Shown: one piece after another, positions 1 through 20,865 of the stretch | Layout: each line of letters begins with the position of its first letter | How positions within the stretch are numbered: the first letter of the stretch is position 1 | From: a bacterium | GTDB taxonomy: Bacteria; Zhuqueibacterota; Zhuqueibacteria; Oceanimicrobiales; Oceanimicrobiaceae | Assembly (NCBI GenBank): GCA_046757165.1 | Contig: JBHHXT010000071.1 | Location: forward strand, 1-21,319 | DNA length: 21,319 nt | Direction: 5' to 3' | Translations under genes and position numbers: made by a program | Notes under the pieces: model-generated | Told to the model about the DNA's origin: nothing | What the model saw: the letters and a program-made list of their open reading frames with translations, nothing else | Databases searched by the model: none

Positions 1-156
1 TTCTGCCCCCACCCATATTCTTGACTTATGAGCACGTACTTTCTTACAGCTAACACTGCTCCTCTGAGATGACCCCTGCTCTCCCCCTCCAGCCCCTCGC
101 GATTATGAAGCGTCCCCTGGTTGTTGGCCGCTCTTGTTTAGGAGGTATTTTATTTC

Positions 157-220
157 ACTATAGCCATATCTTACATAAGTGCAGCATTAATTGTCGTTTA
201 TCAAGATTAACATTCCGTTA
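157..220 (-). promoter_or_regulatory. Putative activator-dependent promoter: tandem TTAA-like boxes plus -10-like TATAGT, pointing leftward out of the window
   Basis: Plus-strand ATTAA(186), GTTTA(196), ATTAA(206), GTTAT(217); minus-strand TATAGT at 162-157; 175-210 matches 11610-11645 at 27/36 positions without gaps. Confidence 0.6.
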
Positions 221-353
221 TGTTGAACGGCTACGTCTTATGGATGCCCCACAAGGGGGCATGGCTACATAGTCGGTGGGGGTCGCCACTCGTCCGCGCA
301 TTCCCCGGTGGGTTTCAATTCGCCACTCGTGCGCCATCTCTTGTTCAACCCCC

Positions 354-2003
354 TCACAAATCATCTCCTCTGCCCATATTCTCATCCCCGGTAATGATTT
401 TCGGCTGCAGCAGAATCACCAGCTCTGACTTGACTTTCTTGGTACTTTTGCTGCGAAAAGGGAAACCGAGAATCGGAATGCTGCCCAGGATGGGAACCTT
501 CTTCTCGTTATCGATCACCTGGTCTTTGATCAACCCGCCGATAATAATGGTCACCCCATCCTTGACGATTACCGTGGTTTCCGACTCGGATTTCTCAATC
601 ACCGGAATGTTGTCGATGAAGCTGGTGACTTCACTGACCTCAGGCTTGATCTTCATTGTAATGAAGCCTTCATCGTTGATATGAGGCGTGACGCGCAATT
701 TCACGCCGACCTCCACGGTGACCACTTTTTCGAAAGTCCGCAGCGTGCCGCCCTGATCCTCGCGCGTATCGATGGTCTTGTAGGGAACGGTGCTCCCTAC
801 CAGGATGTACGCCTCCTGCCCATCTATGGCGGTTATGCGGGGATTGGAAAGCAGGTCTGTCTTGCCGATACTTTGCAGCGCCTCAATCAATCCGGTCAGG
901 GAAAAATCGTCGACTGAAAGATCGGTGGCACGGACTCGTGCACCCGCATCGCTGTCGGCCAGGATTCGAAAGGATGAGCTGATATCGAGATTGCCGCCAA
1001 GCTTGTCCGCCATCGCGTTCCAATCCACACCCATCTTGTACTCATCCGTCAAGTTCACCTGGATGATCTTTGCTTCGATGAGCACCTGCCGGGTCCGCCG
1101 GTCGAGGGCCTGGACTACCTGCTCGATGTTGGGGAGGTTGTCGGGCAAATCTCTAACAAAGAGCTGATTCGAGGTTTTGTCGACGGTTGCAGAGCCAATA
1201 CCCGGGGTCAGCTCGTCCTGCAATCTTGTGGCGATCGCCTCTGCATCGGCGTATTGCAATGAAAAGGTCTCCATGACTGCAGCTCCGGGCGTATCTGCCT
1301 CGTCCAGGAATGTGGCGATTCGTTCTATTCTTTCGGCATCATCAAAAACCACAACCTGATTGGTCCCGGGATCAATTCTGAGCCGGCCGCCGGAGGACAC
1401 CATGTGTTTCACGGCTTCTTCGACGTGCTGAACCGGGACGTGTATGAGCGTGAACGTACTCGTCTGCAGCGGCACGTCGATTTTCGTGATCACCGCTTGC
1501 ATGTCCTGCAGGACAGCCGGGAGATCCACGAGAATGACGCTGTTGCTGCGCGCGTCTGCGATGACATTCCCACTTTTTGACTTCAACTGGAAAATCGATT
1601 TGACCACCTGTTCTGTGCTGGCATGATGCAGCTTCACGACACGCGTCTGCACACGGTCCTTGAAGGGTCGGCCGAACCGGGTCAGGTACTCCTCTGCTGT
1701 CACCACCTTGATAATGCCTCGCTCCCGGTAGTACGCCAGTCCCTGCATCTCAACGACCAGACCGAGCGCGTCCATGACTTTCACGCTGTCGACGAATATC
1801 GTCACGGTGCCCTGAACGGATTTGCTGGTCACAATATTGATGTTTGCGGCTGAGGACAGGGTCTTGAAGACATCATGGACATTGACATTCCGGAATTGCA
1901 GACTCACCTTTTTCTGCTCGCTCCTGCCCCCCTGTGCCCACGTGGTTCCAAAACTGATCAGCATCAAGCAAAAAAACAATGAAAGAGGTCGTTTGTAGCA
2001 CAT
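354..2003 (-). CDS. gspD: Type II secretion system secretin (GspD/PilQ family)
   Basis: Signal peptide (MCYKRPLSLFFCLMLISFGTTWA-Q), N0-like domain, repeated secretin_N domains, secretin core (RQVLIEAKIIQV, LLSNPRI, VKDGVTIIIGGLI, KVPILGSIPILGFPFRS, ELVILLQPKII). The ATG at 2003 follows GGAAGGA; the ORF track extends to 2069. Confidence 0.95.
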   Translation of the reverse strand: MCYKRPLSLFFCLMLISFGTTWAQGGRSEQKKVSLQFRNVNVHDVFKTLSSAANINIVTSKSVQGTVTIFVDSVKVMDALGLVVEMQGLAYYRERGIIKVVTAEEYLTRFGRPFKDRVQTRVVKLHHASTEQVVKSIFQLKSKSGNVIADARSNSVILVDLPAVLQDMQAVITKIDVPLQTSTFTLIHVPVQHVEEAVKHMVSSGGRLRIDPGTNQVVVFDDAERIERIATFLDEADTPGAAVMETFSLQYADAEAIATRLQDELTPGIGSATVDKTSNQLFVRDLPDNLPNIEQVVQALDRRTRQVLIEAKIIQVNLTDEYKMGVDWNAMADKLGGNLDISSSFRILADSDAGARVRATDLSVDDFSLTGLIEALQSIGKTDLLSNPRITAIDGQEAYILVGSTVPYKTIDTREDQGGTLRTFEKVVTVEVGVKLRVTPHINDEGFITMKIKPEVSEVTSFIDNIPVIEKSESETTVIVKDGVTIIIGGLIKDQVIDNEKKVPILGSIPILGFPFRSKSTKKVKSELVILLQPKIITGDENMGRGDDL

Positions 2004-2065
2004 AGGCGTCATTCCTTCCAGTTCTGTGAGTGAGGCAGTGACTCGCACAAATTCATCTCCAGGAC

Positions 2066-2728
2066 TCACATTCGTAAATTGATGAGATCTCCATCGCGCT
2101 GCAGGAGAACCCGGTCAGAGAATATCTCCTGAACCTGATAGCCGTCGAGGCTTTGGCCCCTGGTCAGAAACAGGGTGGTGTTGCTGCTGTTTTCCCGCAC
2201 GATCGCCTGCGGTACCTCCCCCATCAGAATCCCGAGCAGGGTGAAGCGCTGGGTAAATCCGGGCACCTCACTTGCGTTTAGTGGATTGGCGGTTTTGTGC
2301 ACGGGCTCATGCACCTCGACACGAAAGTATCTGCGCCGGGCCGCCACCGTGCTGTAAGACGGATTGCGCTGATTTGCAGTGGCGGAAGGGTTGTCGTTTG
2401 TGCCCGCGACCGCCTGCGGCATCTGTAATTTTTCTGCCAGCGCTTTTCCATCATGCCACAAAAAGAGAAAAACAGCCAGGGTCATGAACAGGGCTAGCAA
2501 AAGAAGCCCTCTGTTGACCAACAACATTGGCTTTTGACGCCAGAGTTGTTTTAGCGGCTGTCCTGGTCTGGTAGCTCGCACCATGCGCAGCTTCTGCCAT
2601 TGTTTGCGCCAGAAGGGCTCTGGCCTGGCTTTGGCTGGCGAGGGCAGGGCTCTGTTGTGCTTGCCATTGGTGGCAGGACCGCTTTCCCGGGCCGGTTTCA
2701 AAAAGAATTTCGCGATTCGGTTCATCAT
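2066..2728 (-). CDS. gspC: GspC/PilP-like protein (one TM helix plus HR domain, no PDZ)
   Basis: Basic N-terminus, TM helix (GLLLLALFMTLAVFLFLW), C-terminal HR-like domain (FTLLGILMGEVPQAIV...GQSLDGYQVQEIFSDRVLLQRDG); directly upstream of the secretin. Start is either ATG 2728 or TTG 2746. Confidence 0.75.
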   Translation of the reverse strand: MMNRIAKFFLKPARESGPATNGKHNRALPSPAKARPEPFWRKQWQKLRMVRATRPGQPLKQLWRQKPMLLVNRGLLLLALFMTLAVFLFLWHDGKALAEKLQMPQAVAGTNDNPSATANQRNPSYSTVAARRRYFRVEVHEPVHKTANPLNASEVPGFTQRFTLLGILMGEVPQAIVRENSSNTTLFLTRGQSLDGYQVQEIFSDRVLLQRDGDLINLRM

Positions 2729-2735
2729 GCTATAC

Positions 2736-3281
2736 TCAGGAAGCAAACATTCTTACGATCACAAACTGACATTGCAGCCCGTCCTTTCGACCTCCCTCAG
2801 GGGCGAGGTAGAGATGGCGAATCCGTGTCAGCCTGTCGCCTGTCTCCAGGCGCTGAAAGAAGGTCATTAGGTCCGGCAACTGGCCAAAACATTCAATCTT
2901 GACTTCGAGCAGCGTGAATCTTTTCCGCTTTCGTTCCCGGGCAGTTGCCGTTCGGTTGTTCAGGGTCGCCCGCACGGGTTGAAAACGGTGAATGGCGACT
3001 CGTCCCGCAGCCGCTTGGATTTCCCGCAGAAACTGAGCCGTGAGTGCGCTTTGAGAGCCATCCTGAGCCTGTTCCGTCTGATTCTGTTCCAGGTGACCCG
3101 CTTCATGCACCACCTTCAACATACTGGCATATTGCAGCCTCCTCTGGGCTATCTCTGTTTCGCTTTGCTGCAGGCCGTTTGTCAGCGGCAGCAGCAGCCC
3201 TTGCATCCCGATGTAAAGAGAGACGCCACCTAAGGCCAACCCGAGCAGGATCTTTTCCCGTTTCGTCAAAGGTCTTTTCAT
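2736..3281 (-). CDS. gspM: GspM/PilO-like inner-membrane platform protein
   Basis: N-terminal LTKREKILL, TM helix, coiled coil, then a ferredoxin-like region (VKIECFGQLPDLMTFFQRLE..RLTRIRHL); position in the operon fits. Confidence 0.75.
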   Translation of the reverse strand: MKRPLTKREKILLGLALGGVSLYIGMQGLLLPLTNGLQQSETEIAQRRLQYASMLKVVHEAGHLEQNQTEQAQDGSQSALTAQFLREIQAAAGRVAIHRFQPVRATLNNRTATARERKRKRFTLLEVKIECFGQLPDLMTFFQRLETGDRLTRIRHLYLAPEGGRKDGLQCQFVIVRMFAS

Positions 3282-4855
3282 CAGTCACGTTCCTGCAGAG
3301 TTTGCTGCAAACTGATTTGCATCTCAAATTCAATTTCTGGCTCTTTCCCCTGTCGCTGGCGGCGGTCTGCGGAGGTGATGACGGTTTCTCCCAGACCGGG
3401 CTGCACTGCCAGCTTCTGAGGGAGATTGAACACGTCACCGAGACGCCTGGCTACCCCTCGCACCACGACCTTTTCACCGCGCATGAAGGTGATGGAGCGC
3501 AGCTCTATGCTGGACGGCAGTTTCTCCAGCACCTGCGCAATGAGAAAGGAGGTGGCTTCTGTCGACACCAGCTCTTTCTCGAGCGAAGCCTCGACCTGCT
3601 GTCTTTTGTGCAGGGCTCGAACCCGGGGTTGCAGAGCCACGACTTTTTCGTTCAGCTCAGCCAGCACCAGATGTCTCTGATGCAGAGCATACCGCGCCGT
3701 GCCGGCGATAAGCAGGACCATGTACAACAGAATCAGCCCGGCATGCACTGCACCGCGGATGAGCTCGCGCTTGCGTCTCTGCTGCCGATCTTCATCCGGA
3801 AGCAGGTTCATCAGCTCATGACCGCGCCCGCCAACCATGCCAAGCAAAGTCGAAATCGAGAACCAGTGATGCCGGGTCGATTTGTCCTCGCTGCCAGCAA
3901 GATGTCCAAGCGGCATCGTCAGGTCGAACCAGCTCACAGGCACCCCCAGGGTTTCCTCCAGTTTGCCGGTCAGGTTTTGGACACGCGGTAACCACCCGGT
4001 GAGCGCAATGTGACCGACCGGAAGGTTGACCCCGGACTGGTCGAAGATCGCAATCGTGTCGGTGACGCCCCTTGAAAGCTCCTCGATCCAGTTGTCGTAC
4101 TCGGCCAGGCGTTGCGGGCCGACCATGCGCTCCATCAAATCTTCCATGCCCTTGCCAACACTGCGGCAAAACAGAAGGTTGTCATCATCGATAATGATGA
4201 CATTGGTGGCAGAAAAGTCAACATCGACCAGCGCCATGCATTTTGACTGAAGGTCCGGAAAATCCTTCAAGAAAAGCAGAAAGGAATGGTAGATAGCTTC
4301 GATGTTCAACCGGATGGCATCCACGACCATGCCAACACTCTCACACAGCTCCACATACCGTTTGCTCTCCCGCTTGTGCGCGATCACCACCATGATCCTG
4401 GCATACCCGTTTTGCTCGCGGGCAATGACGCGGACATCATAGACCACTTCTTTGGGCTCGATGGGAATTTCGTTCTGCAAATGATAGAAGGCCATCTTGC
4501 GCAGCTCACCTGCGTCGTGGCTGGGGAGACGCAACACTTTTGCGTGCACGCTATGCCTGGGGATGGAAATCGTCACGTGGGTGCCCTTCCGGAGCTCCAT
4601 TTCCTCCAGATGGTCCTGCAAGACTTTTCGGATCTCCTCATCCTGATTGGAGGAGAGAAACTTCACTTTCAGGAACTGCACATGGTCTGTCACCGACGGT
4701 CCATTGACCTGGATGAATTTTATCAGATTGCGGTCAAACTCGATGGCCACAAACTTGTGCACCTTGGGCAGAAGCTCGTGTGCCCAGATGAATGCCTTAT
4801 TCTGGAACTCAGCTCCTGACCATCCGGGCTTTGTTTTTTCTGCAACTTGCTCCAT
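3281..4855 (-). CDS. gspL: GspL-like protein: PilM-like actin-fold domain fused to a PilN-like TM/periplasmic domain
   Basis: PilM-like segments (VAIEFDRNLIKF, VTISIP, EIPIEPKEVVYD, ALVDVDFSATNV, HIALTG), then MNLLP, a TM helix, a coiled coil and a PilN-like domain (LPSSIELRSITF...VVVRG). Confidence 0.75.
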   Translation of the reverse strand: MEQVAEKTKPGWSGAEFQNKAFIWAHELLPKVHKFVAIEFDRNLIKFIQVNGPSVTDHVQFLKVKFLSSNQDEEIRKVLQDHLEEMELRKGTHVTISIPRHSVHAKVLRLPSHDAGELRKMAFYHLQNEIPIEPKEVVYDVRVIAREQNGYARIMVVIAHKRESKRYVELCESVGMVVDAIRLNIEAIYHSFLLFLKDFPDLQSKCMALVDVDFSATNVIIIDDDNLLFCRSVGKGMEDLMERMVGPQRLAEYDNWIEELSRGVTDTIAIFDQSGVNLPVGHIALTGWLPRVQNLTGKLEETLGVPVSWFDLTMPLGHLAGSEDKSTRHHWFSISTLLGMVGGRGHELMNLLPDEDRQQRRKRELIRGAVHAGLILLYMVLLIAGTARYALHQRHLVLAELNEKVVALQPRVRALHKRQQVEASLEKELVSTEATSFLIAQVLEKLPSSIELRSITFMRGEKVVVRGVARRLGDVFNLPQKLAVQPGLGETVITSADRRQRQGKEPEIEFEMQISLQQTLQERD

Positions 4856-4893
4856 ATATCAACTCTCTTCCGATGCTGTTTCAGGAACTCAAT

Positions 4894-5895
4894 CTACTGC
4901 TCATTCCAGGCAACGATCTGCACCTCTCTGTCGCTCAGGCGCTGCACTGTCACAGATATCATTTTTCGCACCAGCCCGTTCAGCGTTACACCAACCGCGT
5001 GAATGGTAAAGTGGGTCGATTGGACGCCCAGCGACCCTTCGGAAACGAGCCTGTTCAGCAGAACCTGGTCACTCGGTTTGAGCTTGATCAGTTGATTTAG
5101 CTGGGTGACCAAATCACCGGGCACCTTGAACGCGATGTCATCCCCGGTGAACGGGGAGTCATCATGCCCCTGTCTCACTTTCGTAATCGCTTTGGCCACC
5201 TCCTTGCGGATGCCAAGCATGGACAACACCTCTGCCGGGGCGGTGTTGATGTTGACTTTCCCGTCACCATGGACCGTAATCCAGGGCGCCAGCTGGCGCA
5301 CTTCTTCTTCGTTGAAGCCTTTCACCAGGCGCAATTCTTCCACAAAATCAAACTTGCCGTTCTTGCACGGATAAGAAGCGTTGTGCTCATAGTAATTCGC
5401 CTCTGCGCCGCCCGGTCTCGTCTCGTTGTCCTCGTCGCGCCAATCCATCAGGGCAGCCACTTTTTCTGCCTTCATTCCGGGCAAACGCAACAACGCCTCC
5501 GCCGGAGCATGGTTGATGTTGATCTTTCTATTCTCGTCACACACGCCGTAGATAGGCTGCCGGACATCGTCCCGGCCTGATTCGTTCGAGTACCCGACCT
5601 CAAAGAAGCCGACTCCGCAGCGAATCTGTTTGAAAAGCGCTGGACTGTAGGCCCAGGCCTGCGTGAAAGCGTGGTATGAATCAACCGTATCCTCAGCCGA
5701 AGTGCTCTTCAAAACGGCGATGGCCTGGTAAACCCCGGCTCTGGCAAGCCAGACAGCCTCCGTGGCTCGCAGCGTGTAGCTTTCCAGACGAAGCCCAACC
5801 ACTGCATTACGCACCAGCCCGGCGGTCAGCAAACTGAGCAAGGCCAGAATCCAGAGTGCGGTGATTGAAAGCCCGCCTTTGCTGTCCCTAAGCAT
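4894..5895 (-). CDS. gspK: Minor pseudopilin GspK
   Basis: KG-GLSITALWILALLSLL without Glu5 (typical of GspK), LARAGV, DENRKININ, DWRDED, EELRLVKG, GKVNINTAPAEVL. The ATG at 5895 overlaps the end of gspJ; the ORF track starts at 5937. Confidence 0.93.
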   Translation of the reverse strand: MLRDSKGGLSITALWILALLSLLTAGLVRNAVVGLRLESYTLRATEAVWLARAGVYQAIAVLKSTSAEDTVDSYHAFTQAWAYSPALFKQIRCGVGFFEVGYSNESGRDDVRQPIYGVCDENRKININHAPAEALLRLPGMKAEKVAALMDWRDEDNETRPGGAEANYYEHNASYPCKNGKFDFVEELRLVKGFNEEEVRQLAPWITVHGDGKVNINTAPAEVLSMLGIRKEVAKAITKVRQGHDDSPFTGDDIAFKVPGDLVTQLNQLIKLKPSDQVLLNRLVSEGSLGVQSTHFTIHAVGVTLNGLVRKMISVTVQRLSDREVQIVAWNEQ

Positions 5896-6514
5896 CCGGC
5901 GCCTCGGAGTTCGGGTCTTCCTTGCCGTCACGCGCACGAATCGGACAGATGATCTCCATCTGCTCCCCGGAGGGGGACACCTGCAAGCGAACCTGGACCG
6001 CGAACGGCAATCGTTCCCTATCCGGCCAGTGCGCCCTCCATTGATAGCCAGCGCTTGTGCGTTGCAGATACTGCAAGCTCATTTCCGTGATCTCAGATAA
6101 CAGCGTTTCGTTTCGCCGTCCACTGGTGAAATCCGAAGTTGTTCGGATCAGGCTTTTGAACTCCCCTTCCTGACTCCTCCTCACAGCATAGGAGACGTTA
6201 ATGGGTTTCTTTCCACCGGTCAGGGCGGTCCCAAGGATGGTGAAGCTCAGCGAATCTGCGCTGCCTGTCAGTGGCGCGAAAGAAAAAGCCTGCACGCTGG
6301 CCAAATCAGACGTCCACCTCGAAATCGCATGCCGAACTTCCAGCAGCTTCTGCGTCTTGTCCCGGGTCAGATTTCGTACGGCAATCCCCCGGCGGATGAG
6401 GGTCAGCGTGGCCACCCCGACAATCGCAAAAATCGTCAACGCAACCAGGACCTCGACGAGCGTAAAGCCCGCTTCGTTCAACACCAATTGCTTTCTATTC
6501 TTCTTCTTGCACAT
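5888..6514 (-). CDS. gspJ: Minor pseudopilin GspJ
   Basis: Class III signal AG-FTLVEVLVALTIFAIV; C-terminal WRAHWP..RLPFAVQVRL motif typical of GspJ. Confidence 0.88.
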   Translation of the reverse strand: MCKKKNRKQLVLNEAGFTLVEVLVALTIFAIVGVATLTLIRRGIAVRNLTRDKTQKLLEVRHAISRWTSDLASVQAFSFAPLTGSADSLSFTILGTALTGGKKPINVSYAVRRSQEGEFKSLIRTTSDFTSGRRNETLLSEITEMSLQYLQRTSAGYQWRAHWPDRERLPFAVQVRLQVSPSGEQMEIICPIRARDGKEDPNSEAPDA

Positions 6515-6941
6515 GGACGGGTTGTGGTTTCGGCAACAGCGTGGTCAGAGTTATCTCGCCAGGTCTTCCGCGGTTCTCCCAACGCACGGTCACAGATAGG
6601 TGTTGCAAACCAGGAACATCGCCCCAATCGGAAACCAGGACCTCATAAGGAAAGCCGCCGCTTTCACCGGCTCTGGGCAGGTTTGCAGAGTAGACCCCGC
6701 TAAGCGCATCCAACTCGAACCGGGTTAGAATCTCTTCGGCAACGTGGCGAGCGGGTCCATAGTCGTGCTCGCGCACCTGCACGGAGCGCAGGGAGTTTTG
6801 CGACGCAGACAGGAGGGCGACGATGCCGACGGACAAGATGGTCACGGAAAGGAGCGCCTCAAACAGGATGTACCCCCTCTCACAGGTCCCCTTCGCCGGC
6901 GCCACGCACCGTGATCTTGCTGTTTTCGATCCGGATTTCAT
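6495..6941 (-). CDS. gspI: Minor pseudopilin GspI-like
   Basis: Class III signal RG-YILFEALLSVTILSVGI; C-terminal LSVTVRW...ITLTT; lies between gspH and gspJ. Exact start uncertain. Confidence 0.8.
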   Translation of the reverse strand: MKSGSKTARSRCVAPAKGTCERGYILFEALLSVTILSVGIVALLSASQNSLRSVQVREHDYGPARHVAEEILTRFELDALSGVYSANLPRAGESGGFPYEVLVSDWGDVPGLQHLSVTVRWENRGRPGEITLTTLLPKPQPVHVQEEE

Positions 6942-7365
6942 AAACTTTTTCGTTACCGTCTTTGATTCTCAGCACCAGGTCCGGGCACGCCCCGGCCGGT
7001 GTCCACTCCAATGGTTGAGCCATGGGTTTCAGGTGCGTGCCGCTGGCCAGCGTTCTTTCCAGCTCCACTTGCCACTCATCTTGCCATGACCAGCTCGGCT
7101 GGCCCGGCAGCTCCTGATCGCGGTGGTGTTCAATGGTGTACCCGCGGCCATCCGGCCAGATTTTGACCCGTCGCGCGTGGCCGGTAAGAATGGCCCGCTG
7201 CTGACACAGAACCAGGTCTGCCGCCACCTCCTCGGCGATATTCTGGATGCGCAAATCTTGAAATGAGCGCGACAGCTTGGGCGTGGCCGCCATAACGATC
7301 AGGCCGAGGATGAGCAATGTCAAGCACAGCTCGATCAGGGTGAGACCGTGCTCATTACTGCCCAT
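6880..7365 (-). CDS. gspH: Minor pseudopilin GspH/FimT-like
   Basis: Likely start is ATG 7365 (MGSNEHG-LTLIELCLTLLILGLIVMAATP), overlapping the gspG stop; AEEVAADLVLCQQRAI helix typical of GspH/FimT. Confidence 0.85.
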   Translation of the reverse strand: MGSNEHGLTLIELCLTLLILGLIVMAATPKLSRSFQDLRIQNIAEEVAADLVLCQQRAILTGHARRVKIWPDGRGYTIEHHRDQELPGQPSWSWQDEWQVELERTLASGTHLKPMAQPLEWTPAGACPDLVLRIKDGNEKVYEIRIENSKITVRGAGEGDL

Positions 7366-7807
7366 TTGTTTCGCCGCTCTCCCAATTTGTGACGTCATCG
7401 TCGCCGCCTTTCTGCTGGTCCGGACCGATAGAATACAGATCATAACTCTCCTCGTTCTGTTCGCCCGGAGAGACATAAACATAGGGCTGCCCCCACGGAT
7501 CCTTCGGGTGGGTGTTGCTCTTAAGGTAAGGCCCGTTCCAGGAGAAAGGAATGGGATGAGTCTCTGGTTTGTTGAGAAGCGCCGCCAGCCCCTGCTCTGA
7601 GCTCGGATAGACGCCGTTGTCCAGGTAGTACAGCTCCAGGGCGGTCGCAATATTGGCGCGGATATCAGCAAAAGCTGCCGCGCGCCGTGCCTGCTCTGTT
7701 CGACCAGAAAATTGCGGCACCACCAGCGCGACCAGGACGCCCAGGATGATGACTACCAACATGACCTCGATCAAGGTGAGGCCGCATTCGTTCTTCAAGG
7801 ATCTCAT
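7355..7807 (-). CDS. gspG: Major pseudopilin GspG
   Basis: CG-LTLIEVMLVVIILGVL, ALELYYLDNGVYPSSEQGLAAL, WNGPYL, PKDPWGQPYVY and the acidic Ca-binding tail SIGPDQQKGGDDDVTNW. Confidence 0.97.
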   Translation of the reverse strand: MRSLKNECGLTLIEVMLVVIILGVLVALVVPQFSGRTEQARRAAAFADIRANIATALELYYLDNGVYPSSEQGLAALLNKPETHPIPFSWNGPYLKSNTHPKDPWGQPYVYVSPGEQNEESYDLYSIGPDQQKGGDDDVTNWESGETNGQ

Positions 7808-7813
7808 GATCTC

Positions 7814-8593
7814 TTACTCCGATAATGAAAAACACCACATAAGCAATTCACGCTCCCACAAGAGCACCACCAACGCCCCGAGTGCCAGAAAGGGTCCAAA
7901 CGGCACTTTCCGCGTGGCAGCAGAATACCCCTTCACCAGGATTTGAACCAACCCGGCAACTGTCCCGGCAAAGGCCGCAACCGTCACGGCCAACAGCCCG
8001 GCTTGCCACCCCAAAAACGCGCCGATCATGGCAGCCAATTTGATATCTCCGCCGCCCATGGCGTCAGGCTTTTTGAAGAGAACTTCACCCAACCAGCCGC
8101 CTAAGTAGAGAAACCCTCCGCATACGGCCGTGCCTGTCAGCGCGCCCGCCAGGTCGTGTGACGGCCCCGCGCCGGCGAGCAGCAGACCTGACAGGATGCC
8201 GGTCAAGGTTATCTTGTCTGGAATGATCCGATGGGAAAGGTCGATAAAAGTTGCAATGGTGAGCAATGCACCCAAAAGAATGGCCGAGAACAGCCGGATG
8301 TCAGAGCCAAAATGCCAGAACAAAAGCAAGAAAAGAACCCCGCTCACGATCTCGAGCACCAGATAGCGCGATGGAATCGGCTGCTTGCAACAGCGGCTGC
8401 GGCCGCGAAGCAGGAGATACCCCAGAATCGGGAATTTGTATGGCCAGCGAAGACTGGCCTTGCAATTGTCACAAAAGGAGAGGCCCAGCACGACCGATTG
8501 GCCTTGTGGGATTCTGTAAATACACACGCCGATGAAGCTGCCTGTCAGAAGGCCGCCAAAGAACATGCTCATGTTGCAGATAAACGCGGTCAT
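7814..8593 (-). CDS. gspO: Prepilin peptidase (A24 family, GspO/PilD)
   Basis: GSFIGVCIYRIP, Cys cluster (CDNC...SRCC), both catalytic Asp motifs (FIDLSHRIIPD, MGGGDIKL), PFGPFL. Confidence 0.95.
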   Translation of the reverse strand: MTAFICNMSMFFGGLLTGSFIGVCIYRIPQGQSVVLGLSFCDNCKASLRWPYKFPILGYLLLRGRSRCCKQPIPSRYLVLEIVSGVLFLLLFWHFGSDIRLFSAILLGALLTIATFIDLSHRIIPDKITLTGILSGLLLAGAGPSHDLAGALTGTAVCGGFLYLGGWLGEVLFKKPDAMGGGDIKLAAMIGAFLGWQAGLLAVTVAAFAGTVAGLVQILVKGYSAATRKVPFGPFLALGALVVLLWERELLMWCFSLSE

Positions 8594-8595
8594 AG

Positions 8596-9813
8596 CTATT
8601 GCACCATAAAATCCATTTGGAATATGGGCATCATCATGGCAAACACGATGAACCCGATGATGACGCCCAAAATGATGATCATGCCGGGCTCCAGAAGCTT
8701 TGTAAAAAGAGCTACCCGGCGCTCCACCTCCCTGGCGCTCGATTTGGCAATTCGATCAAGCGCCGTTTGCAGTTGATTGGTGAATTCCGCCGTGGTAATC
8801 ATCTGGCCCAGCAGAGGGGGCAAAACAGTGGAACTCAACAGGCTGGCGCCGATGCGTCCTCCTTTGCGAATGGTTTCAGCCGTTTGACAGAACTCGCGTT
8901 TCACAATCGAGTTGTTGCATGAGGCGACGACCACATCAAAGGCCTTATCCACGGGCACGCCGTGGCCGAGCAATGCGCTCAGGGTGCGGGCAAACTGCGC
9001 CACCTCACCCTCGACAATGAGCGAACCGAAAAAGGGCAGGCGCAGCTTGAAACCGTCGAGCTTCTCACGAAAAGCGCGATTCGCAAGATTCATTTTGAAA
9101 CCGAACACCAGGAGGGTCACCACCACAGCCAGGACAAAGCCGTTGTGCACCACAAAATCGGAAACGGATATTAATACTCGTGTCGGCCACGGCAGGGTCT
9201 GGTTGATCTCATCAAACATTTGAACGATGTTTGGGACGACAAAGGTGAGGAGCAGCACAAGAGTGATAATTCCCATGCCGAGCATGAGCAAAGGGTAGGC
9301 CATGGCGGCACGAATCTGTTTCTTGACGTCGTCTTCACCTTCCAGGTAGTCGGCCAGGTGCATCAGGACCAATTGCACCATCCCGCCGGTTTCGCCTGCC
9401 CGCAGCATGTTGACATACAAGGGCGAAAACAGCTTTGGCCAGGCCGCGCACGCCTCCGAAAGCTGTTGACCATCTTGAAGGCGCCTGAGAACATCCTGCA
9501 ATACCTGTTTGAGCGACGCCTCTTTGGTTTGACTCTGCAGCAGGTGCAAAGCAGAGTAAACGGTCATCCCGGCTTCCATCATGTTGGCCAACTGGCGTGT
9601 AAAAGAGATCAGGGCCTTGCGGGTGGCGCCGGAGTTACCCACGCTCAGACGCTTGCCCCCCAGGATCTGCTCTTCCAGAATGGCAGAAATGTCGACCGGA
9701 TAAAGACCGAGCTCTGTGAGCTGGCCTGCCAGTGCATCTTCGCTCTCGGCCTGCATTTCCCCCTGAACGAATTCCGTGGGCGAAGCTTTGGCCAGATATT
9801 TGAAAACCGGCAT
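8596..9813 (-). CDS. gspF: T2SS inner-membrane platform protein GspF
   Basis: MPVFKYLA, FTRQLANMMEAG, YVNMLRAGETGG, AMAYP, FARTLSALLGHGVP, LLEPGMII...MMMPIF. Confidence 0.96.
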   Translation of the reverse strand: MPVFKYLAKASPTEFVQGEMQAESEDALAGQLTELGLYPVDISAILEEQILGGKRLSVGNSGATRKALISFTRQLANMMEAGMTVYSALHLLQSQTKEASLKQVLQDVLRRLQDGQQLSEACAAWPKLFSPLYVNMLRAGETGGMVQLVLMHLADYLEGEDDVKKQIRAAMAYPLLMLGMGIITLVLLLTFVVPNIVQMFDEINQTLPWPTRVLISVSDFVVHNGFVLAVVVTLLVFGFKMNLANRAFREKLDGFKLRLPFFGSLIVEGEVAQFARTLSALLGHGVPVDKAFDVVVASCNNSIVKREFCQTAETIRKGGRIGASLLSSTVLPPLLGQMITTAEFTNQLQTALDRIAKSSAREVERRVALFTKLLEPGMIIILGVIIGFIVFAMMMPIFQMDFMVQ

Positions 9814-9815
9814 CG

Positions 9816-11444
9816 CTAAGATTCCGTCTCCTGTGTGACGCGAAGAACTTCGTCGAGCGTGGTCACGCCACGCCTTATTTTCTCGATTCCGTCCTGCCGA
9901 AGATGGACCATTCCTTTTGAGATGGCGATCTCGCGCAGTTGATTGGCTGGCGTCTTTTTCACGATGTGCTCCCGAATCTCGTCATCGACAACCAGGAACT
10001 CATAGACGGCGGTCCGCCCCCAATACCCACTCTCCTTGCAATGCGGACAGCCGCGCCCTTTGAACCAGACCGCGTCGTCTCCCAACAACTGTTTTGCCAT
10101 CTCAGCCTTGCCATTGTGTCCCACCTCGACGGTCTTGCACTGAGAACACACCACCCTGACGAGTCGTTGGGCAATAATGCATTCCACTGAGGCCGCAATC
10201 AAGTAGGGTTCAATTCCCATGTTGATCAATCTCGCTACAGCGCTGGCGGCGTCATTGGTATGCAACGTGCTGAACACTAAATGTCCTGTCATGGCGACCT
10301 GAATGGTCACCTCAGCGGTTTCATGGTCGCGAATCTCACCGACCAGCATCACGTCAGGGTCGTGGCGCAGCATCGAGCGAAGGCCCTGTGCGAACGAGAG
10401 ACCAATCTGCGGGTTCACCTGAACCTGAGTGATCCCTGGCAACTGGTATTCGATGGGGTCTTCGACAGTAATGATCTTTCGGTCCGTCTCGTTCAGGCGG
10501 CTCAAACACGAATAGAGCGTTGTTGTTTTCCCGCTGCCGGTCGGTCCGGTGAGCAGGATGATCCCGTGCGGTCGTTGAATCAGCCCTGCGATCAGCGCCA
10601 GGTCGCGCGGCAGCATGCCAAGACTGTCCAGATTGAGGGAGACCTGATTGCAGTTCAGAATTCGCAGATTGACAGACTCCCCAAACGGCGTTGGCAGGAT
10701 CGAGATGCGCAGGTCCAGCTCTTTCTGCCTGGTGCGGACTTTTATGCGGCCGTCCTGGGGCAGACGCTGTTCAGCGATGTTCAAGTTGGCCATGATCTTG
10801 ATGCGCGAGACGATCGCCGTGTGCAAGTGCTGCAGGGATTCGGGCACCGGCACTTCATAGAGAATGCCATCGATGCGGTACCGGATGCGCAAGCTCGACT
10901 CGGAGGGCTCGATATGGATGTCGGTCGCCCGCTCCTGAAAGGACTCGATGAGGAGCTCGTTGACGAACCGGACAATGCTCGCTTCCTCCCCGCCCTCATC
11001 CAGTTCCGACGTCAGGCCGACGGTCAAATCGACGTAGTTGCGGTTCTTGCCATCGCTGAGCATCCGGCCAACGGTTTCAGCGCCAACACCGTAGATGATG
11101 CGCAGCGTCTCCTCGATCTGCTCCAGCTCGGCTTTTTGGGCCTCGACCTCCACGCCGAGCGCCCACTGGATCTCATCCAGAAGGGCGACATCTCCCGGAT
11201 CGGCCATGGCGATCAGAAGGCGATTTCCCTTCTGCCCAAGGGGGACGACCTTGTACCGGCAGGCTATCGTAGACGGCATGAGCTCGCTCAACGCTTTCGG
11301 CTCCGCGGACACCAGCAGAGTGGACAGATCGATAACAGAACTGTGACCGGGCATATCCTGACGCAGCTCCTTACCACTCTTCCCCGCGAGGGTCAAGCCA
11401 TTCTGTTCTTCTCTGTGTCCAGCTTTGTTCTTGACGATAAGCAA
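9816..11444 (-). CDS. gspE: T2SS assembly ATPase GspE
   Basis: T2SSE_N-like region, ATDIHIEP, RLPQDGR, Walker A GPTGSGKTT, TVEDPIEY, LRHDPDVMLVGEIRD, His box TGHLVFSTLHTN, tetra-Cys (CSQC...CPHC). Start is either TTG 11444 or ATG 11354. Confidence 0.97.
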   Translation of the reverse strand: MLIVKNKAGHREEQNGLTLAGKSGKELRQDMPGHSSVIDLSTLLVSAEPKALSELMPSTIACRYKVVPLGQKGNRLLIAMADPGDVALLDEIQWALGVEVEAQKAELEQIEETLRIIYGVGAETVGRMLSDGKNRNYVDLTVGLTSELDEGGEEASIVRFVNELLIESFQERATDIHIEPSESSLRIRYRIDGILYEVPVPESLQHLHTAIVSRIKIMANLNIAEQRLPQDGRIKVRTRQKELDLRISILPTPFGESVNLRILNCNQVSLNLDSLGMLPRDLALIAGLIQRPHGIILLTGPTGSGKTTTLYSCLSRLNETDRKIITVEDPIEYQLPGITQVQVNPQIGLSFAQGLRSMLRHDPDVMLVGEIRDHETAEVTIQVAMTGHLVFSTLHTNDAASAVARLINMGIEPYLIAASVECIIAQRLVRVVCSQCKTVEVGHNGKAEMAKQLLGDDAVWFKGRGCPHCKESGYWGRTAVYEFLVVDDEIREHIVKKTPANQLREIAISKGMVHLRQDGIEKIRRGVTTLDEVLRVTQETES

Positions 11445-11591
11445 CTCCGCTCACCTGCGTCTGATAAGGAGCTCTTTCGATGAGCCCAATCAGTCATGTT
11501 CACCTATTCATCGCCCACCAAGCGCGGCAGGCCGGAAATATCTCAAAAGCAGCCGTGAAAACAACTATTTGGCCGCAACAATTATTACAAA

Positions 11592-11655
11592 AACATAACT
11601 CCTATCAGGATAGGTGCAGGATTAATTCGCGCTAAGATAGATTAATTTCTGTTAA
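11592..11655 (-). promoter_or_regulatory. Putative response-regulator binding array and promoter of the gsp operon
   Basis: ATTAA(11621), GCTAA(11631), ATTAA(11641), GTTAA(11651) at an exact 10-bp period; minus-strand TATGTT at 11597-11592; AT-rich divergent intergenic region; second copy at 175-210. Confidence 0.65.
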
Positions 11656-11802
11656 TCTTGGTGATTTCAGGACGAAACTCAGGGTGGGGCCGGAAAAGAC
11701 AGATTTCTACCTTGCCACAAGCGTAAAGAAGCCGTCCGCACAAAACAAGCTGTGTATGTAGAGAAGGGCAAACAGACACCCACTAAACATGAGGGCCGCA
11801 GC

Positions 11803-12483
11803 ATGAAAGTACTGATAGTTGAAGACGAGGTCCGGGTTGCCAATTTTATTCGCAAAGGCTTGCGCGAGGCGGGATACGCGGCCGACATTGCACAAAGTGC
11901 CGGGGAAGGCGCAGATTGCATGTCGAACAATGAGTACGACCTGGTTTTGCTCGACTGGTTACTCCCCGACAAACCGGGCATCGACTTGTGTCTTCAATGG
12001 CGCAAAGAAAATCTGCTTTTGCCCGTGATCATGGTCACCTGTCGCGACGCAACCGACGATGTGGTTTCCGCCCTGGACAATGGCGTCGATGACTACATCG
12101 TCAAACCCTTTACCTTCAGCGAGCTGCTCGCCAGGATGCGCGCCCTGCTCAGGCGAGCTTCGACAAAGGGCGTATCGCCCACCCTGAAACTGGACGATCT
12201 GGAGGTCAATCCCGCCCGGCGCACAGTCAACCGTGGCGAAACCAAGATCCACCTCTCGGAGCGCGAGTTCGCATTGCTCGAATATCTGCTCCGAAACTCG
12301 GGCAGAGTCTCAACCAAGAAGGAGATTCTGGCCCAGGTGTGGGACATTCAGCACAATATCAATTCCAATCTGGTCGAAGTCTTCATCAACCGCTTGCGGC
12401 TAAAGCTGGATTGCGGCTCGAGACGTCCGCTCATTCATACGCTACGAGGGGCCGGGTATCTGATGAAAGCCCTGGCTGCATGA
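11803..12483 (+). CDS. OmpR/PhoB-family response regulator
   Basis: MKVLIVEDE, DLVLLDWLLP (phospho-Asp), IMVT, DDYIVKPF, winged helix (LSEREFALLEYL, VEVFINRLRLKL, IHTLRGAGY); ATG 11803 preceded by GAGG. Confidence 0.96.
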   Translation: MKVLIVEDEVRVANFIRKGLREAGYAADIAQSAGEGADCMSNNEYDLVLLDWLLPDKPGIDLCLQWRKENLLLPVIMVTCRDATDDVVSALDNGVDDYIVKPFTFSELLARMRALLRRASTKGVSPTLKLDDLEVNPARRTVNRGETKIHLSEREFALLEYLLRNSGRVSTKKEILAQVWDIQHNINSNLVEVFINRLRLKLDCGSRRPLIHTLRGAGYLMKALAA

Positions 12484-13547
12484 TCATGTCCAAGTTTGCT
12501 ATTTTTGCCTGGGTCGCGTTTGCGTGTACGTTGATGCTGACGCGAGATGGCTCGAGCCAGGAATTCATTGGGCCTCATGGCTATTTGACCTTCGAGGCCG
12601 AGATCAGCAACAAAGATTCTGTCGGCGAAAGAGGAACATTCGACCTGCACCATCTCAACATCATCGGCAATTTCTTACTTGATTCAAAAACGCGCGTGTT
12701 CGGCGAGATTGAATGGGAACACGGCATTGATACGGAAGCCGAGGGACAGAACGGAAAGGGGATTGGTTTCGTGCGAGTGGAACGGGCATGGTTCGAGGTC
12801 GTGTTGTCTGACCAGCTCGCGTTCCGTTTAGGCAAATTCCTGACGCCGTATGGCATCTACAACGAAATACACGACGCGGCCCCTGCATACGACACCTCGA
12901 TCCTGCCGACATCTATTTATGGACAACACGAAAATCCATTCGGGCAGCAGCAAAGATTCTATGCGAAGTTTTCAATCGGCATTCAAGCACTGGGGAAGCT
13001 CGAGTTCGGCGGTCTGGGGCTAGACTATCAGGCTTTTGTGTCAAATGGTCGCGGCAGTAAGCCATTTGAACAAGATGATAATGGGAACAAAGGAATCGGC
13101 TTCCGCTTGGAGTCAGATATTGCGGCCGCAGGTCTGAAGCTGGGCTATTCTCTTTACACCGACAGGAATGGTCTTGCAAACAATACCCGACAAACCTCCC
13201 ATGCCTGGGATGTTCGATTCGAGCACAAGCGATGGCGCCTGAGCGGAGAGGTTGCGCTTTCCAGATTAGGCAGGGGCAAAGCGGCTGCCCATGACCAGGT
13301 TGCCAACGCTGGCTATGGAGAGCTGGCTTATCATCTTTTTCGTCGTCAGACCGTCCTGGTGCGGTATGACATTTTTGACGCTGACCGACGACGATCAGGC
13401 GACCTGGAAAAGGACCTCACCCTTGGCATGAGCATTCAAGCGTCCCAAAAAGTTGTCGTTAAGAGTGAGGTGCATTTTCTGCACGCTGAAAACGCAGCTC
13501 GCCAGGATTTCGTTCTGGCCATCGCCTCCCTGGCGGTCGTGTTTTGA
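12480..13547 (+). CDS. Outer-membrane beta-barrel/porin (OprO/OprP-like fold)
   Basis: Signal peptide, amphipathic beta-strands, motifs GEIEWEH, VRVERAWF, FRLGKFLTPYGIYN, NGNKGIGFR, C-terminal Phe (ASLAVVF). The ATG at 12480 overlaps the regulator stop (ATGA). Confidence 0.85.
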   Translation: MIMSKFAIFAWVAFACTLMLTRDGSSQEFIGPHGYLTFEAEISNKDSVGERGTFDLHHLNIIGNFLLDSKTRVFGEIEWEHGIDTEAEGQNGKGIGFVRVERAWFEVVLSDQLAFRLGKFLTPYGIYNEIHDAAPAYDTSILPTSIYGQHENPFGQQQRFYAKFSIGIQALGKLEFGGLGLDYQAFVSNGRGSKPFEQDDNGNKGIGFRLESDIAAAGLKLGYSLYTDRNGLANNTRQTSHAWDVRFEHKRWRLSGEVALSRLGRGKAAAHDQVANAGYGELAYHLFRRQTVLVRYDIFDADRRRSGDLEKDLTLGMSIQASQKVVVKSEVHFLHAENAARQDFVLAIASLAVVF

Positions 13548-14083
13548 CAGTCTTTACTATCATGCACATACCTGAACTGACAAGACGCTGCTGGTCCCTG
13601 ATTGTTTTCTCAATATTTGTCGTGGGCATCGTCTCACCACTCAGTGTGCAGGCACAAATTGTGGTAGTTGTGCCATCGAGCAGCAACGTCGACAGCCTGG
13701 TGACCAAAGATCTGCAGCAGATTTTCAAAGGGGAGGTGGCTTTCAAACGGGAAGGCGTTCCCTATCAAATTGTAGAATTTGCCCCTGTCAGTGACAAATT
13801 CTACAAGATTCTTTATAACCTGGACGCCTATTCAATCGGGAAGCATTGGCTTCGACGGATCTTTTCCGGTGAACGGGTGCTGCCGCCCAAGAGTTTTTCT
13901 AAAGTCGATAGATTCGAGAAGTTTCTTCTCGCCCATGAAAATGCGATTGGGTTCATGACCGCAGATGCATTTGGCAAGATCAAGCGCAACGCGGTGCGAG
14001 CGGTAATCGTCAATGGCTGCCATTATCAGCAGCCAGAATATGCGCTCAGAAAACCTCAAAGGGAGCCGGCTCCCCAAAAATGA
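13544..14083 (+). CDS. Small exported protein resembling one lobe of a type II periplasmic binding protein (often labelled phosphate ABC substrate-binding)
   Basis: Signal peptide ending VQA-Q, then IVVVVPSSSNVDSL..KDLQQIFKG, W..RIFSG...PP and NAIGF, resembling the short PstS-like family. Start is either TTG 13544 or ATG 13562. Confidence 0.75.
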   Translation: MTVFTIMHIPELTRRCWSLIVFSIFVVGIVSPLSVQAQIVVVVPSSSNVDSLVTKDLQQIFKGEVAFKREGVPYQIVEFAPVSDKFYKILYNLDAYSIGKHWLRRIFSGERVLPPKSFSKVDRFEKFLLAHENAIGFMTADAFGKIKRNAVRAVIVNGCHYQQPEYALRKPQREPAPQK

Positions 14084-14096
14084 GCCATGACTCGAC

Positions 14097-15608
14097 ATGA
14101 TGAAGATCTCCTTCAACAATCTGCCTATCCGGCTAAAGCTCGTCATTCCACTGATCACTGTTGTGGCGGCCCTGTTGATTTCAATGAATATCTATTTTCC
14201 GAGGCTCTACAAGCAAAACCTCGCACAAGCCTACGCACAGGAGGCCGCCCGAACGGCGGAGCTTTTTTCAGTCGCGGCCTCTGCCGCTCTCGAGCTCCAT
14301 AGCTTCGAGCTCCTGCAGCAAACCCTGCACAATGCCAAGAGGCATGCCAGCATCCTGTATATCTTTCTGTTTGAGAAAAACGGCGAACCTCTTGCTACCT
14401 ACAGTCCCCGCAGTACCCCGGTACCCAATCCTCCTGTCAGCGATAAAACGTCCATCACCACGAAACCGGAAGCGATCGTGGTGAGGCAGCAAATTGTGGG
14501 CTGCGAGCAAAACGTCCTTGGCCATCTTGTGCTTGGCTACAGTTTGGAAAGTCTGAATCAAAAAGTCAAAAAAGTCCGCGCCGTCACGATTCTTCTGGCC
14601 GGCGTCTCCTTCCTGCTAGGACTCTTTTTTCTCAACAGCGTTTCGAAACGAATTACGAGATCGGTGCAGCAACTGCACACACAGATGCAGGAAACGATCA
14701 AAACGGGCTGCTATACCTCCAAAGTGCCCGTTTCGACTCACGATGAGATTGGCCAGCTCGCAGAGGTTTTCAACCAGATGATAGCGGAGCTGATGCGACG
14801 ACAACAAAGCACGATCGAGTCGCAACAACGCTATCGTGACCTCTATGAGAAGATTCGAAAGCTGAATCGGCTGAAAACCATGTTTGTGTCAGATGCCTCG
14901 CACCATCTCCGCACACCGCTTACGATCATCAGAGGAGAAGTCGAAGTCTCGTTACAGAAAGAAAGAAGTCCAGCAGAATACAATGAAACCCTCATGATTG
15001 TCGAGGAAGAGGCCCGGCACCTGGGGAAGATCGTTGAGAATCTCCTGACCCTGGCCAAGGCAGACACCGGTAACCTGGTCGCGCTGCAAGATGCCATAGA
15101 TTTCTCGCATGTTTGTGAAACCCAAATACGACACGCCAGCGTGCTGATCCAGGACAAAGGTCTGCATCTAAGCTGTCAAATCGAAAAGAACTGTTTTGTG
15201 CGCGGAGATCCTAACCGACTCTCAGAGGTCGTTTTCAACCTTCTGGATAACGCCGCAAAATATACGCCTGAAGACCAATCCATCACTCTGAAGCTCGAAT
15301 CCAGGGAGAACAGCGCGCTCCTGACTGTGACGGATACCGGACCAGGCATACCGGAGCAGGACCTTGACAGAATCTTCGACCGGTTCTACCGCGGTGAAAA
15401 TTCGCGCAGCCGCTCAAAAGGATCGGGCCTGGGTCTGGCAATTTGTAAGAGCATTATCACTGCCCACGGAGGAAAGATTCGCGCTGCAAGCATCCCCGGT
15501 CAAGGAAGCACGTTCAAAGTGGAGCTGAGACGAGCCAGGATTGATGATGAAATACCGCTGACGACTGAAACCGAAGACGCTCCTCATCGCAGAACCGGAG
15601 TCACCTGA
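14097..15608 (+). CDS. Membrane-bound HAMP sensor histidine kinase
   Basis: Two TM helices flanking a periplasmic Cache-like domain, HAMP (DEIGQLAEVFNQM), H-box ASHHLRTPLT, N-box NLLDNAAKY, G1 DTGPGI, F-box IFDRFYR, G2 GSGLGLAI. Confidence 0.96.
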   Translation: MMKISFNNLPIRLKLVIPLITVVAALLISMNIYFPRLYKQNLAQAYAQEAARTAELFSVAASAALELHSFELLQQTLHNAKRHASILYIFLFEKNGEPLATYSPRSTPVPNPPVSDKTSITTKPEAIVVRQQIVGCEQNVLGHLVLGYSLESLNQKVKKVRAVTILLAGVSFLLGLFFLNSVSKRITRSVQQLHTQMQETIKTGCYTSKVPVSTHDEIGQLAEVFNQMIAELMRRQQSTIESQQRYRDLYEKIRKLNRLKTMFVSDASHHLRTPLTIIRGEVEVSLQKERSPAEYNETLMIVEEEARHLGKIVENLLTLAKADTGNLVALQDAIDFSHVCETQIRHASVLIQDKGLHLSCQIEKNCFVRGDPNRLSEVVFNLLDNAAKYTPEDQSITLKLESRENSALLTVTDTGPGIPEQDLDRIFDRFYRGENSRSRSKGSGLGLAICKSIITAHGGKIRAASIPGQGSTFKVELRRARIDDEIPLTTETEDAPHRRTGVT

Positions 15609-15784: not shown

Positions 15785-15842
15785 CTCCCGAGTGTGCGTG
15801 TCGAGAACAGACCATTGTGAGTTTCAATTCAGGCCGAGCAAC

Positions 15843-16292
15843 GTGTTCAGATTCGTCTTAGCCGCCTGCGGATGCCTTCTTCTCCTCAATGCGTGCAGCG
15901 AGGAAGCAAAACCGGTGAACCCCAGCCATCGTCAACGTCAGGCGCAGGTGCGGGAACAACTGAGACTGAAGCTGGGCGAGAGATACGATGAGCCCGTGCC
16001 GGCGGCCACGCCGCAGCAGCTTGAACGTGGGAGTAAGCTTTACGTTCAACTCTGCGCTCCATGCCACGGGGGTCGTGGGGACGGCAGAGGCCACACGGGT
16101 GTGGCACTCGCCATCCCGCCATCGGTTTTCACGGACCGTGAGCAGGCGAGGTTTTTTTCGGAGCAAGCGCGCTTGCACATCATTCGGAAAGGCATGCCGG
16201 GTACCGCAATGATGGGGTGGGAAACGGTGCTGCCAGAAAAGGACATCCAGGCGCTCTATGGTTACATTCGTTCTTTAATTGACACGAGGTGA
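15843..16292 (+). CDS. Monoheme class I c-type cytochrome, probable lipoprotein
   Basis: Single CXXCH (CAPCH), distal Met in GMPGTAMMGW, lipobox-like LLNA-C. Start is either GTG 15843 or GTG 15792. Confidence 0.9.
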   Translation: MFRFVLAACGCLLLLNACSEEAKPVNPSHRQRQAQVREQLRLKLGERYDEPVPAATPQQLERGSKLYVQLCAPCHGGRGDGRGHTGVALAIPPSVFTDREQARFFSEQARLHIIRKGMPGTAMMGWETVLPEKDIQALYGYIRSLIDTR

Positions 16293-16322
16293 ATAGAACC
16301 CGAACGGAGGAAAGAGGAAAGA

Positions 16323-16913: not shown

Positions 16914-16946
16914 CGACGCGGAAACAATCAAAGGAGGGAAAGGATC

Positions 16947-17450: not shown

Positions 17451-17531
17451 TCGCCCAACTTCCTGCCCGACCTGCTGGGGCGGAACAAAACACCTTCGCG
17501 CTTTGTTAGCTGTTTCCTGAGACTGAGGGGA

Positions 17532-20784: not shown

Positions 20785-20836
20785 CTGCTTCCTGACGCCC
20801 ACATCTACAAATGACAAGCTCAACGATTCAACAGAC

Positions 20837-20865
20837 AAAGTACAAATTGCCCGCCAATCTGTCAA
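20837..20865 (-). promoter_or_regulatory. Sigma70-type promoter for the PPDK_N-domain gene
   Basis: Minus strand: TTGACA (20865-20860), 17 bp, TACTTT (20842-20837), about 50 nt upstream of ATG 20784. Confidence 0.7.

Follow-up and report, generated by a model that had tools for sequence, protein, structure and literature searches.

The window analysed here is the whole of contig C71, 21,319 nucleotides from a KSB1-like bacterium whose genome is assembled as 6.09 Mb in 531 contigs; nothing is assembled to the left of position 1. The four runs that contain the window sequence are hydrothermal-vent metagenomes from a single study; no RNA data set was listed among them, a result without bearing on expression. 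The window carries a type II secretion system (T2SS)-type operon on the minus strand, bordered on both sides by copies of one promoter element with tandem repeats, termed the box below, and a divergently read gene for a response regulator of the OmpR/PhoB family. The original prediction held that the two copies mark activator-dependent promoters, one for the operon and one for a co-regulated leftward gene off the left edge, a strong candidate for the secreted cargo. The relevant features of the window are listed below.

1–55, minus strand: terminal part of a roughly 630-bp, multi-copy cassette that carries a GxxExxY gene; the assembly breaks at it, and its distance downstream from promoter 1's predicted start is about 95 nt.
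157–162, minus strand: predicted −10 element of promoter 1 (TATAGT), with a predicted start near 150.
180–185, minus strand: conserved −35-position element of promoter 1 (sense nnYGCA; plus-strand TGC).
186–220, no strand assigned: box copy 1, four TTAA-like half-sites with a 10-bp period; predicted site for two regulator dimers; rank 2 of 12,140,706 positions.
240–344, no strand assigned: dispersed REP-like repeat that separates the gspD stop from box copy 1, outside the element; 45 BLAST matches in the genome.
354–11444, minus strand: T2SS-type operon of 12 genes, gspE-F-O-G-H-I-J-K-(PilM-like L)-M-C-D, by Pfam and NCBIfam; gene order kept in relatives.
11592–11597, minus strand: predicted −10 element of promoter 2 (TATGTT), with a predicted start near 11585, upstream of gspE.
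11615–11620, minus strand: conserved −35-position element of promoter 2.
11621–11655, no strand assigned: box copy 2, in the gap that separates gspE from the divergent regulator gene; top-scoring position of the genome.
11803–12483, plus strand: OmpR/PhoB-family response regulator (Response_reg and Trans_reg_C), the predicted binder of the box.
12483–13547, plus strand: porin-like beta-barrel (Porin_O_P/BBP2-like; Atlas features 0.98, TM 0.8–0.9).
13544–14083, plus strand: small protein predicted to be exported and conserved together with the regulator; its only match, to PstS, is not significant (E=1.9).
14097–15608, plus strand: sensor histidine kinase, the predicted cognate sensor (HAMP, HisKA, HATPase_c; CHASE8-like sensor domain below cut-off), conserved with the regulator.

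The operon unites the core T2SS genes, gspC to gspM plus gspO, in one locus. Components C, D, E, F, G, J, K and O score above their Pfam cut-offs, M scores below, L is PilM-like, and H and I were assigned from position and a pilin-like N-terminus alone. The REP-like repeat that separates gspD from box copy 1 is a GC-rich hairpin; the gspD stop and the box adjoin each other in several relatives.

An ungapped, same-orientation alignment of positions 175–210 with 11610–11645 has 27 identities in 36, and every coordinate given for them in the original prediction holds. The 10-bp period of TTAA-like units described there is borne out as well, with units at 187, 197, 207 and 217 in copy 1 and at 11622, 11632, 11642 and 11652 in copy 2; each copy has four units, one of them beyond the 36-mers. 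The minus-strand hexamers TATAGT (162–157) and TATGTT (11597–11592) each lie 24 nt from the first TTAA, as had been noted, and 17 nt from the shared TGC. The full element spans 41 bases, TGC-n3-A-TTAA-n6-TYYA-n6-TTAA-n6-TTAA, which on the sense strand of the target gene reads TTAA-n6-TTAA-n6-TRRA-n6-TTAA-T-nn-YGCA. The fourth unit is more degenerate in copy 1 than in copy 2, and the matrix score of copy 1, given below, is lower.

Such a likeness might arise by chance in AT-rich intergenic DNA, given that a short form of the pattern is common. A mis-spaced variant with one N too many before the last unit occurs at 20 metagenome loci, mostly AT-rich and without the genes of the window or the cargo, and is uninformative. 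Shuffles, whole-genome and phylum-wide tests, however, contradict chance. In 500 local shuffles of both intergenic regions, the best ungapped 36-mer match had 19–25 identities and never 27. Across the whole 6.1-Mb genome, on both strands, copy 1 has a next-best match of 24/36 and copy 2 one of 23/36; the concern that similar matches might be common in the AT-rich intergenic DNA of this genome was thus dispelled, nothing besides the pair itself exceeding 24/36. Positional conservation at orthologous loci, described next, refutes the chance explanation, to which we give practically no credence.

The seed TTAA-n16-TTAA, taken from the window, was run on 21 relatives' loci and gave 22 distinct arrays, 16 of them with TGC seven bases before the first TTAA. 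Of these, 17 served to train a matrix; the five omitted were four arrays that lack TGC in front of regulator genes and a single array elsewhere. Its seed and TGC weight are therefore partly selected. This matrix, built from relatives only, ranks positions 11615 and 180 of the window first and second of the 12,140,706 positions of the genome, at 39.7 and 33.9 bits, with the next site at 19.5; with an AT-rich background the two copies score 34.3 and 27.5 and the next site 10.8. Sites outside the training set were recovered upstream of gspE in G012 (42.1), of the large gene described below in G002 (35.2) and G004 (26.0), and of an AraC-type gene in G006 (42.5). Among 167 genomes of the phylum, 11 contain a strict pattern, at 18 places in total; the pattern was tuned on the sites found, matches copy 1 of the window but not copy 2, and has a reversed control that occurs nowhere. 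These 11 genomes hold an orthologue of the regulator in 11 cases, GspD in 10 and the large protein in 8, the totals for the 167 genomes being 15, 10 (close GspD orthologues, window genome included) and 8. A strong box lies upstream of gspE in 7 of the 10 genomes in which that region is assembled (the window genome, G003, G004, G006, G012, G013 and G019). The cis-element is real and well conserved, and the expectation that the motif would be kept at orthologous loci held.

The spacing to the −10 region is likewise fixed. In 21 of 22 sites, a set that includes both window copies, TA lies 17 or 18 nt past TGC (the best offset pair in 20,000 shuffles reached at most 13), and the full TAnnnT is found in 11 (null maximum 9). 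Tandem repeats one turn apart suit members of the OmpR/PhoB family, and here the repeats are spaced by about one helical turn, are kept across orthologues and stand at a set distance from the −10 element. If transcription starts near 150 and 11585, YGCA corresponds to −33 to −30 and the units to about −37 to −70, which places the repeats upstream of the conserved −35-position element. This element had been described as a non-consensus sequence where the −35 should be. It does not match the consensus well, but the conservation of its TGC in 16 of 22 arrays marks it as a fixed promoter element and not merely a weak −35. Scanning for the sigma-70 consensus recovered neither promoter in its predicted register, a sigma-54 reading was rejected by eye on a mismatch in spacing to the motif, and an 8-mer common to both window leaders was carried by 0 of 20 leaders of relatives. 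The claim of two activator-dependent promoters stands as far as conservation at orthologous loci and fixed −10 spacing go, and the dependence on an activator is likely.

The regulator encoded at 11803–12483 has a receiver and a winged-helix domain, both above cut-off (PF00072, PF00486). Arrays lie at most 700 nt upstream of 12 of the 14 regulator orthologues with enough sequence (G012, with 82 nt only, was dropped), and 6 of those 12 were not training sites. None was found before four more distant regulators (45–50% identity; 0/4), nor upstream of the other full-length OmpR-like gene of the window genome, the only one that the search returned. In G052, a genome in which no orthologue of this GspD was found, it is the regulator gene itself that the array faces, and TATAAT lies 18 nt further, which suggests autoregulation in that genome. 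According to the available part of PMC10570014, PmrA reads TAA via T187, N188, V192 and H195; the Asn and Val of its recognition helix align with an Asn and a Val of the regulator that are kept in its orthologues, both residues being common in the family. Taken with its position, these features make the neighbouring regulator the predicted binder of both copies.

A genuine co-regulated promoter pair could also be read by a different factor, an alternative sigma or one of three other winged-helix regulators. The genome encodes four Trans_reg_C genes including the regulator and thus offers three further candidates, and the conserved YGCA with its loose −10 (final T in 11 of 22 sites) fits the sigma-70 consensus poorly. 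The arrays, however, track the regulator's orthologues even where the T2SS was not found (G014, G052 and G055), every one of the 11 box genomes carries such an orthologue, and tandem repeats one turn apart fit the OmpR/PhoB family. We therefore regard another reader as quite improbable and retain the neighbouring regulator as the predicted one. Its assignment to the CzcR/CusR/CopR heavy-metal type was rejected: those models are the best matches but score below cut-off (214 vs 279 bits for TIGR01387, 210 vs 293 for TIGR01386).

Of 15 orthologous loci, 14 keep the genes for the porin, the small exported protein and the kinase (12483–15608) after the regulator; the three possibly form a trans-envelope sensing module. 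The small exported protein has no significant match in PDB, Pfam or NCBIfam. A second OmpR-like regulator (47–48% identity) directly follows the kinase in G013:C40 and G003:C45, with no array upstream. In two genomes in which this T2SS was not found, the gene that the regulator's array faces is cytochrome c-like (G055:C2) or codes for an exported CBM96 protein (G014:C185); the regulator may have been re-used for other exported proteins.

The gene served by promoter 1 was sought in relatives. Six of 10 relative loci (G003, G004, G015, G027, G042 and, as an N-terminus, G013:C40) have a gene of 1,467–2,454 aa no more than 2 kb after gspD, and a box precedes this large gene in all 7 of the relatives in which its 5′ end is assembled; in G002 it lies on a contig apart from the T2SS and has kept its own box. 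In G019 a box follows gspD and the contig then ends, in G006 and G013:C604 a small beta-helix gene follows gspD with no box before the contig end, and in G002 gspD is followed by a short beta-helix-like frame without a box. The predicted signal sequence of the leftward gene could be checked in these relatives, where the large protein starts with a segment that resembles a signal peptide by eye. It has SdrD_B and carboxypeptidase-regulatory Ig-like repeats and a beta-helix, with PKD and CBM96 domains in some strains, and lacks a FlgD/type IX secretion system (T9SS) tail. CBM96 is said to be alginate-specific (PMC9971899). The model of its core (pLDDT 86) has only generic beta-helix carbohydrate enzymes as fold matches (TM by query 0.25–0.42, 9–14% identity), and its invariant Asp, Glu and His residues suggest a catalytic or metal-binding function. 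At its C-terminus, a conserved Pro/Gly-rich tail follows a choice-of-anchor Q segment; this tail could be an export or anchoring signal. The family is also present in Nitrospirae, Chloroflexi, Phycisphaerae and Ferrigenium, one named homologue bears the label KSB1, and a scan of a genome collection with one cargo protein gave four loci.

In the window genome, the sole orthologue lies on contig C336, an open frame of 1,553 codons cut at both contig ends and 63% identical to that of G004. Its N-terminal 460–560 residues are missing, and the assembly of this genome yielded no match to cargo residues 1 to about 460. The literal next gene after promoter 1 is that of the cassette, as the cassette end lies about 95 nt past the predicted start and reads leftwards; the cargo gene is accordingly placed beyond it, and we consider it likely that the C336 gene lies there. 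The genome has 49 similar left ends of the cassette, 46 of them within 105 nt of a contig end, and only about 4 matching right ends were found. A complete copy occupies about 9330–9958 of C3, and its gene passes TIGR04256 (140 bits, cut-off 35); it may be a cassette spreading genome-wide. The cassette has ends similar to integron cassette and attC core motifs, and several copies follow attC-like tails; no integron integrase passes cut-off (best 188 of 265 bits). No contig of the four runs, one of which may be the source, joins the left edge to new sequence, and neither of the two contigs found to begin at the far end of the cassette runs on into the cargo gene. The prediction of a co-regulated gene off the left edge thus holds in relatives, which carry a signal-peptide-type gene after the box, while in the window genome itself the next gene is the mobile GxxExxY cassette.

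Copy 1 might be orphaned in this strain, with the cassette separating the gene from its promoter or blocking read-through, so that copy 1 drives the cassette gene only or nothing useful. The cassette end close behind the predicted start in the same reading direction, the degenerate fourth unit and lower score of copy 1, and the absence of the N-terminal part of the cargo from the assembly would all agree with this. On the other hand, C336 is an uninterrupted frame of 1,553 codons, and the missing piece has roughly the length of the shortest contigs retained (1,526 nt), so that filtering can explain its absence. An orphaned copy 1 is accordingly unlikely, and we keep to a functional promoter with the cargo gene beyond the cassette.

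Combining these results, we propose that both copies are conserved, likely activator-dependent promoters by which the OmpR-family regulator switches on the T2SS operon and the gene for the large beta-helix cargo, a reading to which we assign a probability of about 0.7. The sensor kinase, probably aided by the porin and the small periplasmic protein, would phosphorylate the regulator. Two head-to-tail regulator dimers would then occupy about −70 to −37, next to the conserved non-consensus −35 (YGCA) and a TA-anchored −10 at 17–18 nt. Promoter 2 would drive gspE-D, and promoter 1 would give the cargo gene its own start besides possible read-through from the operon. In the strain of the window, the GxxExxY cassette would have inserted between promoter 1 and the cargo gene.

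Several findings weigh against this model. The join between C71 and C336 is inferred, not assembled. The 11 box genomes are kin and partly incomplete, and their counts are not independent trials. A loose 13-base motif is unspecific, with 57 matches against 55 for the reversed control in 61 genomes. No box above background lies between the regulator and gspE in G002 and G042, which are also the two regulator orthologues without an upstream array, and the array of G027 is weak and TGC-less. The box after gspD is missing in 3 of 10 relative loci (G002, G006 and G013:C604), and strong sites also occur before an AraC-type gene (G006:C263) and without a clear target (G004:C60). The Chloroflexi homologues of the large protein have no box in 2 of 2 loci fetched. 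GspD and GspE fall below their NCBIfam cut-offs (291 vs 351 and 599 vs 630 bits), although T2SS models are their best matches. Finally, a box-headed choice-of-anchor-D protein in G006 ends in a FlgD/T9SS-type tail, as does a small protein after gspD in G015 that is likely its homologue. Since these two proteins carry T9SS-type tails, being headed by a box does not equal being T2SS cargo, and the regulon looks like a set of exported proteins and not of T2SS substrates only.

The last points bear on a further possibility, namely that the regulon holds but the large protein leaves by another route while the T2SS serves other proteins or builds a filament. Chloroflexi are not known to have a classical outer membrane, and homologues of the large protein occur there; other members of the regulon have T9SS-type tails. 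GspD and GspE lie under the equivalog cut-offs, and PMC6668835, in its accessible part, cautions that so-called T2SS in Bacteroidetes branch with type IV pili, which calls for caution about T2SS membership outside Proteobacteria. Against another route, the large protein has a signal-peptide-like N-terminus (by eye) and no T9SS tail, its gene adjoins gspD or lies within 2 kb of it in 6 of 10 relative loci, and this T2SS is found in 8 of 8 genomes with the large protein (in seven by GspD, in G012 by gspE-pilM). We hold a separate exit route to be possible but doubtful, and secretion of the large protein through the T2SS remains the predicted outcome. The candidacy of the downstream gene as secreted cargo is thus backed by its box and its linkage to gspD in relatives, and tempered by the existence of box-headed genes with T9SS-type tails.

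The shared box is valuable because T2SS substrates carry no readable export signal, which makes it a rare route by which the sequence by itself can name T2SS cargo. In this case it singles out an uncharacterised family of 1,500–2,500-aa beta-helix proteins with invariant acidic and His residues, and it supplies an uncultured lineage with a promoter and regulon model that is precise and can be tested. As a tentative extension, which we think improbable as a whole, the porin, small periplasmic protein and kinase would be one trans-envelope device that senses a product of the secreted beta-helix enzyme and feeds back via the four-site 10-bp TTAA box and the lineage-specific YGCA −35 on a patchy, mobile module of regulator, T2SS and giant polysaccharide-active enzymes of a so far undescribed family in KSB1-like bacteria.

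Co-activation of a T2SS and its substrate by a two-component system is an established principle, and it is newly predicted here for a KSB1-like lineage. As far as the available text of PMC8623646 goes, the Txc T2SS of Pseudomonas aeruginosa PA7 and its substrate CbpE were shown by experiment to be under TtsS/TtsR. The likeness is a dedicated T2SS and a carbohydrate-related substrate gene under one two-component system; our case differs in its phylum, in the porin and small exported protein in the sensor operon, in a predicted beta-helix cargo of 1,470–2,450 aa and in being comparative only, with linkage and co-regulation of cargo gene and T2SS read from the box in 7 of 7 assembled relatives. 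In Serratia marcescens, PhoP binds a box upstream of the gsp operon and activates the T2SS (PMC13729183, in part), much as the regulator is predicted to act at the box upstream of gsp here. PhoP, however, is a global regulator, whereas the regulator of the window is divergent beside the operon and has only two strong sites in the assembled genome, the second box heading the predicted cargo. The portions available of PMC10570014 (PmrA/BasR box) and PMC5083920 (SaeR box) report 11-bp repeats, the PmrA box replacing the −35. These boxes share with ours TTAA-cored direct repeats and OmpR/PhoB-family readers, and the Asn and Val of the PmrA helix are kept; identity with PmrA/BasR or SaeR was rejected on the 10-bp period and four units, on the conserved −35-position element downstream of them, and on the PmrA model (175 bits, cut-off 330). 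The survey of KSB1 in PMC9012183 shows no secretion-system regulon in its accessible part, and literature pairing KSB1 with secretion or regulon terms gave no such promoter or regulon model among the matches listed.

A fourth system, the Xcm T2SS of Pseudomonas putida GB-1, exports manganese oxidases (PMC13689576, in part). It resembles the locus in being a specialised T2SS with genes for SCO-type copper chaperones nearby, but the cytochrome c-SCO-PCuAC genes were not found in the relatives' loci fetched, and the predicted cargo has no oxidase domain in Pfam. A manganese-oxidase or copper reading was rejected when its co-distribution test failed, the genome's Tat-type multicopper oxidase being found in 3 of 167 genomes only. 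The genes concerned lie at 15792–17798, after the kinase, and encode a cytochrome c, SCO1/SenC, PCuAC and an NrtS-family protein.

The third-ranked site of the genome, on C125 (19.5 bits; 10.8 with the AT-rich background), has neither TGC nor −10 and was not counted. On the minus strand of C125, positions 1–12703 encode a MerR-like protein, a 1,981-aa CBM96/PKD/di-haem cytochrome c peroxidase protein with a FlgD tail, a cytochrome c and the Tat-type multicopper oxidase; a degenerate TTAA array precedes this cluster. The second GspD locus of G013 (C604) is near-identical in DNA to that of G006 (C16), which suggests contamination or recent transfer. At the right of the window, 17782–20865 encodes a 1,027-aa PPDK_N (PEP synthetase-like) protein with an N-terminal receiver-like domain.

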